Positions 30,001 through 36,000 of a stretch of 64,000 bases of DNA are shown here, one piece after another. The position numbers were made by a program. Position 1 is the stretch's first letter, and each line of letters starts with the position of its first letter. The stretch comes from Chthoniobacterales bacterium (GTDB lineage: Bacteria; Verrucomicrobiota; Verrucomicrobiia; Chthoniobacterales; Chthoniobacteraceae): contig JBBQZX010000017.1 of the NCBI GenBank assembly GCA_038207335.1, positions 51,787 through 115,786 of the forward strand. Reading direction: 5' to 3'.

Positions 30001-33000
30001 CGACGTGATCGCTCCCCCAAAATCCGTGATCGCAACGCGCAGTCCACGGGGATGCGTGAGCGTGTAGAGCATCGCGTTCTTCCCATCGGGGAGCTGGCCA
30101 AACGGTGCGCTAGAAACGGACTGGGAGGAGTCGGGCATGAGGCAGGTTGCGACGCGGAAAATTGAGGGTCAATGCCGCGCGCGAGTCCAGCGGCTGATTG
30201 ACGCATTCGGCGCGCTCCGCAAACTTCGCGGCCTCGCATGGAAATCAAAAAAGCGCTCATCACTGCTGCAGGCACAAGCCAGCGCTCGCTGCCTTTGCAG
30301 ACGCTCGTCGATCGCGATGGCGTCACGAAGACGGCGTTCGCGATCATCGTGGAAGAGATTTTGCGCGCGGGCATCGAGACGATCGGCGTGGTCATCGCGA
30401 CGGGCGACGACGGCTCGTATCGCGAGGCGGCGGGGCGGCACGCGGAGCGGCTCACCTTCATTGAGCAGCCGCAGCCCCTAGGATACGCACACGCCATTCA
30501 TTGCGCGGAAGCGTTTTGCGGCGACGACGCGTTTTTGCTGCTCGTCAGCGATCACCTGTATCTGAGCGCCACGGCGGTCGGTTGCGCGCAGCAACTCGTC
30601 GAAATCGCGCGCCTCGAAAACTGCTCCGTCTCCGCCGTGCAATCGACGCACGAGAGCCAGCTCCGCTACTACGGCGCGGTCGGCGGCAAGCTCGTGAACG
30701 CGGCGCAGCGGCTCTACCAAGTCGAGGCGGTGCTCGAAAAACCGACGCCGACGGAGGCCGAGCAAAAGCTCGACGTGCCGGGTTTGCGCGCTGGTTTTTA
30801 TCTCTGCTTTTTCGGGATGCACGTCCTCACGCCGACCGTACATCGCGTGCTCCGCGAGCTTTTCTCCGGGAGTAAAAATGCGCCGGCGATCAACTTCCGC
30901 GCGGCTCTGGCAAAGCTCGCGGCTCAGGAGCGCTACCTCGCTTGCGAGCTGGAGGGACGGCGCTTCGACTTCGGTGTGAAATACGGATTGCTCACCTCGC
31001 AGCTCGCGCTCGCGCTCTCCGGCAACGACCGCGATGAGGTGCTCGCCGGGCTCGTGGAATTGCTCGCGACCAAACTGAAGTGAGCCAGCTTCTCTGCATC
31101 ATCACGGCGGAGGATGCGGCGCTGCGCGACCGGTCGCTCGACGAAATTTGCCTCGCGCTATCGTTCGAGGAATTGCGCGCGGAGGCGGCGGCACTCGATG
31201 CGTTTCGGCGACAGAGCGAGAATCTTTACGAGCGGGTCCGCGCACTCTTTTTTCTGTATGCGATCCATCGCTTCCATCTGCCGGCGCGCGCGGAATTGCA
31301 GGCGAGCGGGCAGATCCCGTTTCACGGTTACGAGCATCTGCTGCAGCGGCGCTTCGAGGAGGCGATCGACGTTTTTTTAACTGCGCAAAATGCGAATGGG
31401 CCGAGCGACGCGCTGAGCAGCGCGCTCGCGGCGGCGTATCATCGGCTCGCGTTTCAGACGCTCGCGGATCAGGTCAGACGCAGCGTTCGCGGGGTGCGGG
31501 GGAATCAGTGGATGTTTCGAATGGGGCATCCGAAAGATCAGCCGCTGAAGATTCGCGACGAGCTGCTTCGTCGAAATGGGGAGGACGATGCATTCCCGAT
31601 TTTGCGCGAGCGCACGCCGGTGCGAATGGACCTGACTCACAGCGCGTGGAGCGACATTTTTTTCCTCGGAATGGACTACCCCGAGGGCGCGAAAGTGCTG
31701 AATGTCTCGGTCGATCTCGGCGTGCATGGACGCGATTCGGCGACGCAACCGCCCGTCTCGGCGTGGCTGCGCGTGATCGAAGAGCCGGTTCTAAGGCTCG
31801 TGAGCGTGGACCTCGGCGTTCGCGCGGAGATCGCCAATCTCGCGGAGGTTTTCGACTTCGCGAAAGACTACCTCGGCCTGCTCAAGGCGGCGGTGATCGC
31901 GTCGGGACTCGTGCCGCCGGGGATCGAAGGGTCAGGGCAAAGTCTCGCAGATTTGCTCGCGACGATGGTCGGGCCGGGGCGCGGGCTGGAGCTCGTGAGC
32001 TCGGTGAATGACATCCCGAAAGGCTCGCGGCTCGCGGTCTCGACGAACCTGCTCGCGGCGCTCGTGAGCGTCTGCATGAGGGCGACGAGCCAGGCTGAAT
32101 CGCTGACCGGCGAGCTGAAGGAAAGCGAGCGGCGGCTGGTGCTGGCGCGCGCGCTTTTCGGCGAATGGATCGGGGGCAGCGGAGGCGGCTGGCAGGATTC
32201 CGGCGGCGTGTGGCCGGGAATGAAACTGATCGAGGGCGTGGCTGCGCAGACGGGCGATGCGGAGTGGGGCGTGAGCCGCGGACGGTTGATGCCGAAACAT
32301 CGCATCCTCGACGAGGCGGATGCGTCGGCGGAAACGCGGAAGAAGTTGCAGGAAAGTCTCGTGCTCGTTCACGGCGGGATGGCGCAAAATGTCGGGCCGA
32401 TTCTCGAGATGGTGACGGAGAAATATCTGCTGCGGAGCGCGGCTGAATGGCGCGGGCGAGCGGAGGCGCTCGGCATCCTCGGCGACATCCTCGATGCGCT
32501 GCGCGACGGCGACATCGCGCACGTCGGCGAGGTGACGACACGCAATTTTCAGGGGCCGATTCAGACGATCATTCCGTGGGCTTCGACGTTTTACACGGAG
32601 CGGTTGATCGAGCAGGTGCGCGCGGAATTCGGCTCGGATTTCTGGGGCTTTTGGATGCTCGGCGGAATGTCCGGCGGCGGGATGGGTTTTATCTTTGCGC
32701 CCGAGAAAAAAGCAGCCGCGCAGAAGCGGCTGCAGGAGATTATGAGCGCGACGAAGCGCGAACTGGAGCACGCGCTGCCGTTCGCGATGGAGCCGGTGGT
32801 GTATGACTTTTCGATCAATGAGCGCGGGACTTTTGCCGACCTCCGCGCGGGTGCGAACGCGCTGATGCCTGCGGGATATTACGCGCTGACCGTGCCGGAA
32901 TTGCTACGGCAGGATCGCCGCACGCTCTCGCCGATGCGGCGCGCGGAGCTGGATAAATTCGGCGCGGCGTGCCGGACGAAGCCGGAACTTCGCGGGATGG

Positions 33001-36000
33001 TGCAGACGCTTTTCGACGCGATGCTGCCGCGCGGGAAAGCGGAGGCGTCGGGCGGGGAAAATCTCGCGGCGCTTCTGGCCGAGCACGGCTTCGATGCGAA
33101 GCAGCACGAGCAGATTCGCGGGCAGCTCCGCGAGGGGCGCATTGGGCTCGCGCAGAACCGGCTGCCGGCGAATTCGGTGATCGAGGACGTGCAGCCCGGC
33201 GACGTTTTCGATGCGACGAATTTCGACTCGAAAACGGCGCGGGACATTGGCCTCGCGGCACTGCGCTCGGGCGAGGTCGCGGTCGTCACGCTCGCCGCCG
33301 GCGCGGGGTCGCGCTGGACGCAGGGCGCGGGAGTCGTGAAGGCGCTGCATCCTTTCTGCAAGCTGCACGGACGGCATCGCACCTTCCTCGAAACGCACCT
33401 CGCGAAGAGCCGCAAAATCGGGCGGCTGGCGGGCACGGAACTGCCTCACATTTTCACGACAAGCTATCTCACGCACGGACCGACGGCGGCGTTTTTGGAG
33501 CAGGAGAAAAATTACGGATACAACGGGCCGCTGTTTCTTTCGCCGGGCAAAAACGTGGGGCTCCGGATGGTGCCGACGGAGCGGGATTTGCGGTTCGCGT
33601 GGGAGGAGATGCCGCAGCAGATGCTCGATGAGCAGCAGCAGAAAGTGCGGCAGAGTTTGCGCGCAGCGCTGATCGGCTGGGCGCGCGCCAGCGGCGAGGC
33701 GAGCGACTACACGGACAATCTCCCGCTGCAATGTCTGCATCCGGTCGGGCATTGGTTCGAAGTGCCGAATCTGCTTCGCAATGGCACGCTCGCGCGACTG
33801 CTCGCGGAGCGACCGCAGACGCGATTTTTAATGCTGCACAATATCGACACGCTGGGCGCGAATGTTGATCCCGCGTTGCTCGGACGGCACATCGGGTCGG
33901 GCGCGTGCCTCACTTTCGAAGTCATCACACGGCGGCTGGAGGATCGCGGCGGCGGGCTGGCGCGGGTGAATGGAAGGGTGCGGCTCGTGGAGGGGCTCGC
34001 GATGCCGCGCGAGGAGGCGGAATTTGCGTTGAGCTATTACAATACGCTCACGACTTGGATCGATCTCGACCGGCTGCTCGCGGCGTTCGGACTCACGCGG
34101 GCGGAGCTTTCCGACGACGAAAAAGTGGCGCAGGCGATCCGTAGTCTCGCGGCGAAGATGCCAACTTACATCACGCTGAAAGACGTGAAGAAGCGTTGGG
34201 GTCATGGCCAGGAGGATGTTTTCCCGGTGACGCAATTCGAAAAACTGTGGGGCGACATGAGCGCGCTGCCGGAGATCGACACGCGGTTCGCAGTAGTGCC
34301 GCGGATGCGCGGGCAGCAGCTCAAGGATCAGGCGCAGCTCGACGCGTGGCTGCGCGACGGGTCGGCGGCGTGGATCGAGGGGCTGTGCGATTGGGGCTAG
34401 CCGTCGGCGTCCCCGCCTCCTTATCTGGTGCAAAAGTGCCCGACGACTCGCATCGTGACAGCCGGGACGGCTGTCTTCCGTACGCGTGGCATCACATGCA
34501 GTTTTCGGTTGTCAGGGAAAATCGGAATCGGTTAAACCGTCGCCCACTTATGAATCGACGTTTCGTTCCAGCCGTTTTGGTTACGGCAGTTGGCCTTCTC
34601 ACGGCTTGCAATAACACGCCTCCAAAACAGCATGGCCAGCGGCCACCGTATCATCCCCCGGTGACGCAGGATGAACCCATGGATCGCCCGGTGCGCCACG
34701 ATGAGCCAGAGCCCGCGCCGCCTACAAACAACGATCCCGTCGTTCCGCCGACCGCCCCGACTGTTGGGAACCCCGAATACGGCAAGAAAGTCGCCGGAAA
34801 AGATGGCTTCGTTACGAGCCCCTACGCGCCTTCCTCAGGCTATGTCGATGTCCGCGGATTTCCGCCCGGGACGGAAGTGAAGGACCCCTACACAGGCAAG
34901 ATTTTCCTCGTCCCGTAAACGGCTCGCAGGTCGCAAGAAATTCCCGACCCCGGCTCGTGGCACAGCGCTGCGAGCCGGGGTCTTTTGTCGCATGAAGAAA
35001 GTCGCAATCCTCGGCCCCGGACTTCTCGGCGGCTCGATCGCGCTCGCGTTGCACGCGCGCGACGGAGTGTCCGTCGCGATGTGGGCCCGGCGAGCGGAGG
35101 CTGCGGCAGAGGTGGTGGAAAAAGGAGTCGCGGAGTTTGCTTCGAGCGACCTCGCTGAGGTCGTGCGCGATGCGGACGTCGTCGTTTTTTGCACGCCTGT
35201 CGGCGCGATGCCGGCGCTCGCGCGCACGATCGCTCCGCTGATTCCTCCGGGCGCGCTCGTCACCGATGTCGGCAGCGTCAAAGCGGCGGTGGCCGCGGAA
35301 CTCGCGCCCATTTTCAAAGGCAAGGCGCGCTTCGTTGGGAGCCATCCGATGGCCGGTTCGGAGCAGGCGGGGCTCGATGCCGCGCGGGCGGAGCTCTTTG
35401 TGGGAGCGACTTGCATCGTCACGCCCGATGCGGATTCGCAAACGAAGGCAGTCGCGGAGGTCTGCGCATTTTGGGAAATGCTCGGCTGCACGGTGGCGCG
35501 ACTTTCTCCTCAGGCACACGACGAAGCCGTCGCACTCGTTAGCCACTTTCCGCATCTTCTCGCAGCCTCACTCGTCGAGATGGTCGCCGGTGAAAACGCC
35601 GCTGCACTCGCGCTGTGCGGACCGGGTTTTCGCGACACCACGCGGGTCGCGAGCGGTCCGCCGGCGATGTGGACCGAGATCCTGCAAACCAACCGCGCGG
35701 CGGTGCAAAAATCCGCGGAGGCAATGATTGAAAAGCTCCGCGAAATCATAACACTCCTCGGCCCGGCAGCCCCGAAACACGCGATGCACGACTTTCTCAC
35801 CCAAGCAAAAAACCGGCGCGACTCGCTGCGCCGCACCGACCGATGAGCGACTGGAAAATCCGCCGCGCACCGGCAATCCAAACCGAGATCACCGTCCCCG
35901 GCGACAAGAGCATCTCGCACCGCTCCGTCATGCTCGCGGCCATGACAAATGGCCCGTGCGTCATCCGCGGCTTCCTGCCGAGCGAGGACTGCCTGTGCAC

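Follow-up and report, generated by a model that had tools for sequence, protein, structure and literature searches.

Introduction

Fkp of Bacteroides fragilis (PDB 9IIP, 9IIT, 5YYS; PMC11982464) carries a pyrophosphorylase and a kinase in one chain, with a GTP-using domain and its beta-helix at the N-terminus, followed by a linker and a kinase half in which R592, W599, D601, E751, Q761, and D762 are the catalytic and sugar-binding residues. The zebrafish protein DrGKUP (glucuronokinase/putative UDP-GlcA pyrophosphorylase; PMC3938481) is also a natural fusion of a GHMP sugar-1-kinase and a pyrophosphorylase, in this case for a UDP-sugar, so a UDP-type counterpart of Fkp has already been described; its nucleotidyltransferase, a bacterial-type domain of about 260 aa, is N-terminal and showed hardly any activity in vitro. 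Related folds occur in the single-domain heptose-7-phosphate 1-kinase HddA/WcbL (PDB 4USM, 3K85; PMC4691232), in the PF01704 pyrophosphorylases UGPase (Arabidopsis 2ICY, Aspergillus 7PPR) and UAP (6G9V), and in GalU and GalF (PMC4643126).

Here, a fusion is described from the window, a 64,000-nt stretch of a Chthoniobacterales genome, in which an Fkp-like kinase half precedes a eukaryote UGPase-type domain and is coupled to a GalU-like partner gene (Table 1). The reading that best explains this architecture, to which we assign a probability of about one half, is a bifunctional enzyme predicted from sequence and model to convert a sugar to an NDP-sugar in one chain, with an accessory GalU-like subunit. 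A literature search found no paper on this kinase-pyrophosphorylase fusion family.

Table 1. Features of the locus, in window coordinates
Feature	Position	Strand	Remarks
Aldose 1-epimerase (mutarotase) gene	29065..30138	-	divergent to GalU-like gene
GalU-like partner gene	30238..31083	+	281 aa
Fusion gene	31080..34400	+	1106 aa; helical linker, GHMP kinase, helical bundle, UGPase/UAP-fold nucleotidyltransferase
Helical region, aa 1-170	31080..31589	+	structural alignment with Fkp inter-domain linker
Fkp/HddA-type GHMP sugar-1-kinase domain, aa 171-590	31590..32849	+	R182, W190, D192, E362, Q372, D373
Remodelled phosphate loop, aa 313-322	32016..32045	+	R317 at Fkp G715, A319 at G717
Three-helix bundle, aa 598-650	32871..33029	+	presence tracks GalU-like partner; candidate docking site
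Eukaryote-type (PF01704) nucleotidyltransferase domain, aa 652-1106	33033..34397	+	UGPase-like sugar pocket

Gene organization

The survey's finding of a 1106-aa kinase and pyrophosphorylase fusion was reproduced for the ORF, for both domain matches, and, in an AlphaFold (AF2) model (pLDDT 91.7, pTM 0.89), for both folds. The match to the Fkp kinase (E 1.8e-9, aa 174-552), the match to eukaryotic UGPases (E 8.8e-9), and the Pfam UDPGP match (E 8.5e-11; 41.6 bits against a cut-off of 22) were all recovered. The fusion gene starts with GTG and overlaps the TGA of the partner gene by 4 nt. Of 154 loci, 133 have a GalU-like gene upstream, at a median gap of 10 nt, which confirms this gene as part of the unit. 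The mutarotase on the opposite strand, which had also been counted with the locus, is present, but its adjacency is not conserved: among 18 regions compared it is found next to the unit in just one same-genus genome, and a mutarotase of unrelated type occurs at 1 of the 154 loci. It is a local neighbour outside the conserved unit.

The kinase half

Residues 1-589 of the model match the linker and kinase half of Fkp (Z 34-36), aligning with residues 488-949 of the 9iit chain (Z 34.0, rmsd 3.4, 455 aligned) and 484-949 of 5yys, and the GHMP two-domain fold is present (9iip; Z 36.1, rmsd 2.8, 354 aligned). Fkp is the sole kinase matched by sequence as well as the top structural match, and the sequence match improves to E 1.8e-18 when the family profile is used. 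The six Fkp residues named above correspond to R182 (82/82), W190 (77/82), D192 (82/82), E362 (85/86), Q372 (86/86), and D373 (85/86), with conservation counted in a 97-row alignment that includes distant members found with phmmer, while Fkp T602 is replaced by Ile193. An identity as Fkp proper (PRK13412) was rejected: the profile match is confined to positions 611-950, the model aligns only to Fkp 488-949, the N-terminal GDP-fucose pyrophosphorylase domain is absent, and the NCBIfam Fkp model scores 80.5 bits (E 6e-23), far under its 721-bit cut-off. From the fold and the kept residues we infer a first step in which the GHMP domain would phosphorylate a monosaccharide at its anomeric hydroxyl, probably with ATP as donor, D373 acting as the base and R182 stabilising the leaving group, as D762 and R592 do in Fkp. 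The kept Fkp-type residues neither name the sugar nor point to glucose.

The phosphate loop (Fkp 712-720) is present in altered form, with G715, G717, and T718 replaced by R317, A319, and V320, and with S321 and T322 kept; the WcbL Ser triplet is Val-Ser-Thr in the fusion. R317 is invariant in all 152 loci covering the position, while three distant homologues have Gly. A kinase domain that draws on a donor other than ATP (PPi from the second domain, or polyphosphate), or that serves as a sugar or nucleotide sensor regulating the pyrophosphorylase, would agree with this fixed, non-consensus loop and its added Arg, with the lack of any score for the window protein from the Pfam GHMP models, and with the compactness of the model, which suggests inter-domain contact. 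Such a role is nonetheless quite improbable: every residue found essential by mutation of Fkp and WcbL is kept, along with S321 and T322, and GHMP_kinases_N does match the distant members that have Gly at 317 (three of the 24 proteins scanned).

The pyrophosphorylase domain

Residues 652-1105 adopt the eukaryote-type pyrophosphorylase fold (Z about 29-31 against UGPase and UAP structures; 7ppr, Z 31.1, rmsd 3.1, 340 aligned). UGPases have a C-terminal left-handed beta-helix; the model has none and ends where UGPase chains reach residues ~380-420 of 460-505, with no further domain, and it carries a family-specific helical insertion of 45 aa (aa 834-878). The eukaryote-type assignment stands and is not in itself surprising, since PF01704 matches occur in 175 of 201 phylum genomes and stand-alone proteins are common. 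With the family profile the UGPase match improves to E 3.3e-24, and the profile ranks nine UGPases (E 5e-26 to 3e-18) above ten UAP-like proteins (E 2e-17 to 9e-13) and far above three proteins that, from their motifs, we take to be USP-like (E 6e-6 to 7e-4). The broad UDP-sugar pyrophosphorylase (USP) of the survey's finding was rejected on these weakest scores and on Tyr987, which occupies the Phe292 site in 138/138 loci, the mark used for a USP being a small aliphatic residue and a Gly near C4 and not an aromatic; both the pocket and the profile match UGPase.

The Arabidopsis UGPase sites K99, P189, G191, H192, N220, G258, E271, F292, and N293 (PMC5832301, PMC5609113) correspond to K754, P888, G890, H891, N921, G958, E971, Y987, and N988; depending on the site, 138-143 loci cover it and 135-143 of them retain the residue. 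Of the glucose and phosphate contacts, K754, H891, N921, G958, E971, and N988 are identical to those in Arabidopsis, K256 is R956, and F292 is Y987. Judged from the alignments, both active sites of the fusion are intact and strongly conserved. Arabidopsis Gly87 is replaced by Ala740, and an Arg in the nucleotide-binding loop is shared with UAP-like proteins. An equivalent of the uridine-binding Gln162 was found in neither alignment register (P822/G823 or L828), so even the "UDP" of the original proposal is provisional; P888 and G890 of the uridine site are kept, and UTP use is predicted from sequence. Position 828 is Leu in 90 of 92 scorable loci where the partner lacks its catalytic-Lys loop (see below) and Gln in 17/17 scorable loci with an intact partner.

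In the second step, the C-terminal domain would join the sugar-1-phosphate and an NTP, most likely UTP, to yield an NDP-sugar and PPi. The barely active pyrophosphorylase of the zebrafish fusion DrGKUP speaks against this two-step reading. The most likely substrate has the D-gluco configuration (glucose, glucuronate, or xylose), because the second pocket keeps the glucose residues of plant UGPase, including an aromatic favouring an equatorial C4-OH. The same two steps could instead act on an Fkp-type sugar (L-fucose, D-arabinose, L-galactose, or another 6-deoxy or L-sugar) and/or use a nucleotide other than UTP, which we regard as unlikely. The standing of Fkp as the only kinase found by sequence and as the top structural match, the retained linker, the fucose-contacting residues (W599, D601, Q761, and D762, all kept), and the missing uridine-reading Gln in the clade of the window fit such a substrate; the UGPase glucose contacts and the Gln at 828 alongside intact partners speak against it, as does the preference for UTP that one report (PMC6329318) ascribes to all plant enzymes of the UGPase family.

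The GalU-like partner and the helical bundle

The partner has the GalU fold (model pLDDT 90.3; 5j49, Z 31.0, rmsd 3.2, 257 aligned) without the 8-residue loop bearing the conserved Lys of GalU and without a 24-residue helix, and it keeps Q77, G82, D105, and E167-K168-P169. Canonical GalU (TIGR01099) was rejected as its identity: the score is 100.3 bits against a cut-off of 326.8, the GXG(T/S)R motif is disrupted, and the Lys loop is deleted. The disrupted signature recalls GalF, whose defect is T20M/R21H rather than a loop deletion. Across loci, the partner occurs intact or without the catalytic-Lys loop; the loop is deleted in 100 loci, the window locus included, and 19 loci have a partner that keeps both the Arg and the Lys. 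The GxGTR Arg persists in 86 of the 100 loop-less copies, and these could be active, though the loop-less partner most likely serves as a subunit with little or no activity of its own.

The three-helix bundle and the partner are both present at 126 loci and both absent at seven; five have a bundle but no neighbouring partner gene, and none has the partner only. The seven loci lacking both form one clade and are not independent. Mutual information across 117 fusion/partner pairs, at low depth, revealed no signal between the two proteins at the bundle, where 6 of the 200 top-ranked pairs fell against 9.6 expected. The bundle is a candidate docking site, on which the partner would dock, and the partner would bind an NDP-sugar, comparable to GMPPA on GMPPB; GMPPA is described as a non-catalytic, product-binding regulatory paralogue (PMC11228364), while the target proposed here belongs to another enzyme family. 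Partnerless homologues (L092-L098, L101) indicate that the core does not need an adjacent partner. A more specific version, in which a 1-kinase dedicated to glucose (or xylose) and a UGPase in one chain would make UDP-glucose directly from the free sugar without glucose-6-phosphate or phosphoglucomutase, under the control of a GalU-derived, product-sensing pseudo-enzyme docked on the bundle, is doubtful; to our knowledge, there is no established dedicated glucose 1-kinase pathway.

The partner family groups apart from canonical GalU; its sister group consists of GalU-type domains that are fused to GalK-like kinases (tree support 1.0). This placement, the translational coupling of two nucleotidyltransferase folds to one kinase, and the Arg and Lys retained at 19 loci would suit an arrangement in which both nucleotidyltransferases work in opposite directions, coupled to the kinase in a GalT-like exchange (X-1-P + UDP-Glc to UDP-X + Glc-1-P). 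Also in its favour, among 18 same-family relatives GalT is found in 0/7 with the fusion and 4/11 without it. The exchange is very improbable given the loss of the Lys loop in the window locus and so many others, the partnerless forms, the rarity of GalT phylum-wide (11/201 genomes; 2/14 fusion bearers), and the presence of both GalK and GalT in the genome of the window.

Genomic context and distribution

Beyond GalK and GalT, the genome has GalE, two NDP-sugar dehydrogenases, and, on another contig, a separate HddA-like cluster; it holds no canonical GalU and no PF01704 gene besides the fusion. The missing GalU is weak evidence, because neither a clear GalU nor a clear PF01704 gene shows up in six complete genomes of the family that have no such unit. 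Of 14 fusion-bearing phylum genomes, 12 show no canonical GalU and no stand-alone UGPase, a pattern that could indicate non-consecutive activities, with the UGPase domain fed by phosphoglucomutase and the kinase acting, like HddA/WcbL, on a phosphorylated sugar to form a 1,x-bisphosphate whose extra phosphate R317 would bind. WcbL is nearly tied with Fkp structurally (4usm against the kinase domain; Z 34.9, rmsd 2.8, 343 aligned) and has the same catalytic set (R13, D22, Q162, and D163 equivalents kept), R317 does not vary, and two giant homologues carry ROK kinase domains, one with an additional inositol-monophosphatase-family domain. Both giant proteins, however, have Gly at 317, many fusion-less phylum genomes also show neither enzyme, no phosphatase gene recurs beside the unit in 74 loci, and the unit is patchy within the genus (3/10 genomes), unlike a housekeeping UGPase. 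We consider separate activities rather unlikely and retain the consecutive two-step route as the preferred reading. Heptose-pathway genes were not found to recur near the unit, nor were transporters or glycosidases in the 74 loci, save for an MFS-like cluster, named by eye, in five of them.

The survey had reported homologues in 5 of 40 phylum genomes; the family is real and larger than claimed, with members in 13 of 200 Verrucomicrobiota genomes, at least 659 confirmed matching stretches in a GTDB scan, and at least 8000 clusters at 90% identity. Carriers include Verrucomicrobiota, Planctomycetota, Acidobacteriota, Bacteroidota, Chloroflexota, and others, among them the cultured Chthoniobacter flavus Ellin428 and Hymenobacter volaticus (plasmid NZ_CP095065.1).

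Implications

As a one-protein route from free sugar to nucleotide sugar, with a putative role in salvage, the survey's proposal is still the best reading of the sequence evidence, shorn of a firm UDP product, of the mutarotase, and of a unique domain order. The kinase-first order, reversed relative to Fkp, is real, and it is not unique because fusions of a GHMP kinase followed by a GalU-type domain occur in the same phylum. Thousands of family proteins bear no database label other than "UTP--glucose-1-phosphate uridylyltransferase" or "hypothetical", and their 590-aa kinase half goes unrecognised. Should the preferred reading be true, the family would hold an anomeric kinase not yet assigned and a natural route to a nucleotide sugar in a single protein, of use in enzymatic synthesis much as Fkp serves for GDP-fucose. 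The pairing of partner and bundle would offer a concrete test case for a bacterial pseudo-enzyme regulator, and the fusion could account for UDP-sugar synthesis in some soil bacteria that lack galU.

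Genomic setting of the unit

The survey's finding placed a GalU-like gene (the partner), a kinase-pyrophosphorylase fusion gene and a divergent mutarotase gene side by side, and all three lie where it had put them (see table). No sigma-70-like promoter was found across positions 29900-35100. The mutarotase was rejected as a member of the unit of partner and fusion: it stands beside the fusion in one same-genus genome (G205) among 18 regions, is not next to it in genome G208, the genes of which are 96-99% identical, and the 154 collected loci (74 from GTDB, 80 from metagenomes) hold a single mutarotase, of unrelated type (L098). 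The stand-alone small nucleotidyltransferase, which resembles relatives that the DrUP domain of zebrafish has in bacteria, was likewise rejected as a member (zero matches in 154 loci at E 1e-8). The lexA-like group of genes keeps its synteny in G205. No recurrent sugar-specific neighbour genes of the unit were found; the biggest clusters of neighbouring genes, present in 10, 9 and 7 of the 74 GTDB loci, come from related genomes and, named by eye, look like folK, dapB and dapA.

Features of the window and coordinates of related loci
Sequence	Feature	Position	Strand	Remark
Window	Stand-alone small nucleotidyltransferase	23508-24260	-	6 kb from unit
Window	lexA-like gene, then DinB-like Y-family polymerase gene and metallo-beta-lactamase-fold-like ORF	24430-26864	+	Named by eye
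Window	Mutarotase	29065-30138	-	Divergent from unit
Window	GalU-like partner ORF, 281 aa	30238-31083	+	4-nt overlap with fusion start
Window	Fusion ORF, 1106 aa	31080-34400	+	GTG start
Window	Pro-rich, lipoprotein-like ORF, 140 aa	34496-34918	+	After fusion; no Pfam match
Window	Strong terminator-like hairpin, 16 pairs	34946-34982	+	After 140-aa ORF
L043	Insertion-bearing locus	6971-11044
L045	Insertion-bearing locus	6204-10412
G213 (L199/L201)	Insertion-bearing locus
L236 (NZ_CP095065.1)	Unit on Hymenobacter volaticus plasmid	51136-54456
L238 (G197)	Other kinase/nucleotidyltransferase fusion	320-2245
L242 (G008)	Other kinase/nucleotidyltransferase fusion	631-3399

Architecture and kinase site of the fusion

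The single-sequence matches of the earlier survey were reproduced (Fkp kinase, E 1.8e-9; fungal UDP-glucose pyrophosphorylase (UGPase), E 8.8e-9; Pfam UDPGP, E 8.5e-11) and a 97-row alignment profile strengthened them (Fkp, E 1.8e-18; UGPase, E 3.3e-24). In the AlphaFold2 model (pLDDT 91.7, pTM 0.89), a three-helix bundle (aa 598-650) separates the kinase and nucleotidyltransferase halves, and a helical insertion (aa 834-878) lies within the second domain. Residues 1-589 superimpose on Fkp 488-949 (9iit; Z 34.0, rmsd 3.4, 455 aligned), with Fkp structure 9iip giving Z 36.1, rmsd 2.8 and 354 aligned residues, so the N-terminal 170 residues correspond to the Fkp inter-domain linker (residues 431-583 in an excerpt of PMC11982464). 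An ESM Atlas search returned clusters of the fusion family alone, with no usable named match for aa 1-600.

The kinase-site residues of Fkp described in the same paper (R592, W599, D601, E751, Q761 and D762; PMC11982464) map to fusion R182 (82/82 alignment rows), W190 (77/82), D192 (82/82), E362 (85/86), Q372 (86/86) and D373 (85/86), counting only rows that cover each site and including distant phmmer matches. They are almost wholly kept across the 154 loci, a conservation that is partly circular because two motifs served as search patterns. The phosphate loop is remodelled, with Fkp G715, G717 and T718 replaced by R317, A319 and V320; R317 occurs in 152 of 152 loci, and three distant proteins have Gly there. 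Such a loop might belong to a kinase with a non-ATP donor or to a sensor kinase, a reading that, set beside the retained catalytic residues, we hold to be improbable.

The heptokinase WcbL is a near-equal structural match to the kinase half (Z 34.9) and, according to part of PMC4691232, works on heptose-7-phosphate with the same R/D/Q/D set; the kinase residues thus point to a working GHMP site and not to a particular sugar. The likeness to WcbL would also suit a sugar-phosphate kinase with an activity unlinked to that of the second domain; we consider unlinked activities unlikely.

Pyrophosphorylase site

UAP and UGPase structures are equal matches to residues 652-1105 (Z about 31), which lack the UGPase beta-helix in the structural alignment, and structures of broad UDP-sugar pyrophosphorylases (USPs) are missing from the best 50 fold matches, which does not amount to an exclusion. 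The family profile gave E-values of 5e-26 to 3e-18 for nine bacterial UGPases, 2e-17 to 9e-13 for ten UAP-like proteins and 6e-6 to 7e-4 for three USP-like proteins. Site residues of Arabidopsis UGPase, taken from excerpts of PMC5832301 and PMC5609113, map as K99, P189, G191, H192 and N220 to K754, P888, G890, H891 and N921, and as K256, G258, E271, F292 and N293 to R956, G958, E971, Y987 and N988. By rules proposed in PMC5609113, the His in place of Asn would speak against a sugar with an N-acetyl group, and the aromatic residue would favour a glucose-like C4.

The fusion lacks a counterpart of the uridine-binding Gln162 in both alignment registers; position 828 is Gln in 17/17 scorable loci with an intact partner and Leu in 90/92 with a loop-less one. 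Judged from the enzyme family (PMC6329318, in part), UTP would be the likeliest nucleotide. An Fkp-type sugar or another nucleotide, for which the Fkp-like kinase and the missing Gln162 counterpart leave some room, seems unlikely beside the UGPase-like site residues.

Distribution and variants

Clustering at 90% identity divides the fusion family into at least 8000 groups, and a GTDB scan gave at least 659 confirmed matching stretches, from which the 74 GTDB loci were kept. Among the matches listed, named carriers belong to the Verrucomicrobiota, Planctomycetota, Acidobacteriota, Omnitrophota, Chloroflexi, Bacteroidales and Armatimonadetes, with one on a Hymenobacter plasmid (243 kb), where the unit sits amid signalling genes and the gene table has no entry for the fusion gene. 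The unit is patchy, occurring in 13/200 phylum genomes, 7/30 relatives and 3/10 genomes in the genus, some relatives being incomplete.

Shorter matches are mostly pieces cut by contig ends. Both domains are retained in distant homologues (28-38%). Five long proteins with signal-peptide-like N-termini contain both domains (P0148, 2318 aa; P0170, 2939 aa; P0139; P0155; P0270); ROK domains accompany them in two of these giants and an inositol-monophosphatase domain in one, and P0270 has the opposite order, pyrophosphorylase then kinase; we take them to resemble Omnitrophota giant proteins. The divergent P0160 (1292 aa) has Ser-rich insertions and substitutions of R745, E971 and N988, looks eukaryote-like and possibly carries a decayed pyrophosphorylase. 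Some homologues (P0033, P0039, P0046, P0050, P0052, P0057, P0116 and P0118) have an extra in-frame ~240-290 aa at about aa 710-730, by score an IS200-like/RAYT transposase domain (PF01797) in three scanned proteins.

The GalU-like partner

The partner lies upstream of the fusion in 64 of the 74 GTDB loci, a contig end cutting seven of the other ten, and in 133/154 loci overall (median gap, 10 nt). Its predicted structure has the GalU fold and its GalU family score is below the cut-off (100 against 327 bits). In nineteen loci the partner retains both Arg and Lys loop; in 100 (the window included) this 8-residue loop is gone, and 14 are N-terminally cut; a 24-residue helix is also missing in the eight aligned loop-less copies, and the Arg of GXG(T/S)R, a motif whose disruption cut E. 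coli GalU activity about 500-fold (PMC4643126, excerpt), is still present in 86/100 loop-less copies. Uridylyl exchange by two active transferases would suit the 19 intact partners and, given the 100 without the loop, appears very improbable.

A tree of 30 sequences took in eight loop-less and six intact partners, three kinase-fused domains and 13 of the 16 canonical GalU sequences retrieved; in it, same-phylum GalU-type domains fused behind GalK-like kinases form the sister group of the partners (support 1.0). Kinase-first fusions therefore exist outside the fusion family, and the reversed domain order that the survey had highlighted is not distinctive. Frames of about 650 aa with a GalK-like kinase and then a GalU-type domain occur in 9/201 phylum genomes (one Pfam-confirmed), and a second kind places GalK after a MobA-like NTP transferase; loci with such same-phylum kinase/nucleotidyltransferase fusions are L237, L239 and L246 and those in the table. 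Verrucomicrobiota proteins of about 600 aa (L241, L243 and L244, in G005, G214 and G224) have motifs that we assume to be like those of plant/Leishmania USP.

Excluding eight loci that do not cover the bundle and eight with too little upstream DNA, 138 were scored: 126 have both bundle and partner, seven neither, five the bundle only and none the partner only. The seven, with bundles eroded to varying degrees, form one deep clade in a tree built without bundle columns and so count as one contrast. This co-occurrence fits, and does not prove, a candidate partner docking site at aa 598-650. Mutual information between partner and fusion (117 pairs, effective number 73) gave no signal above relatedness, and the bundle as a mimic of GalU C-terminal helices, a likeness seen by eye, was not significant in profile comparison (probability 0.1-1.1%).

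Metabolic context

The genome of the window (94.7% complete) encodes GalE, two NDP-sugar dehydrogenases, an HddA-like cluster and, at a sugar locus apart from the unit, GalK and GalT; neither a canonical GalU nor further PF01704 genes were found in it. Replacement of GalK by the fusion was rejected, a clear GalK being present in 11/14 fusion-bearing genomes. Replacement of GalT is suggestive within the family (GalT in 0/7 carriers versus 4/11 non-carriers) but not supported phylum-wide (2/14 versus 9/187). For GalU/UGPase the test is uninformative because many phylum genomes without the unit likewise show neither canonical GalU nor standalone UGPase, and comparisons with all four enzymes picked out no single pathway. 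Across 201 phylum genomes, GalK-type genes occur in 162, PF01704 genes in 175 and GalT in 11; with the first two common and GalT rare, the phylum may usually handle galactose by a route that relies on a pyrophosphorylase.

Proposed function

The fusion is not a member of Fkp, USP or strict UGPase, nor the partner of GalU; judged by fold and residues, the fusion would work like the first three. It probably turns some sugar into some NDP-sugar in one chain. Our fuller reading, to which we give a probability of roughly one half, is a two-step activation in which the kinase would use ATP to phosphorylate the anomeric position of a D-gluco-configured sugar, the same chain would carry out nucleotidyl transfer and the partner would be an accessory subunit, possibly product-sensing, as GMPPA is for GMPPB (PMC11228364, in part).

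No paper on the fusion family, or on an Fkp linker-kinase joined to a UGPase-type domain with a coupled GalU-like partner, was found in the open-access literature, and the available part of a giant-gene preprint (10.1101/2023.11.21.568195) does not mention the combination. Bifunctional sugar-1-kinase/pyrophosphorylases are already known: Fkp serves the synthesis of GDP-fucose, and DrGKUP of zebrafish that of UDP-glucuronate (PMC3938481, excerpt). The fusion-partner unit is real and widespread, and its joining of a linker-kinase to a UGPase-type domain, with a GalU-like partner coupled to them, would be what is new.
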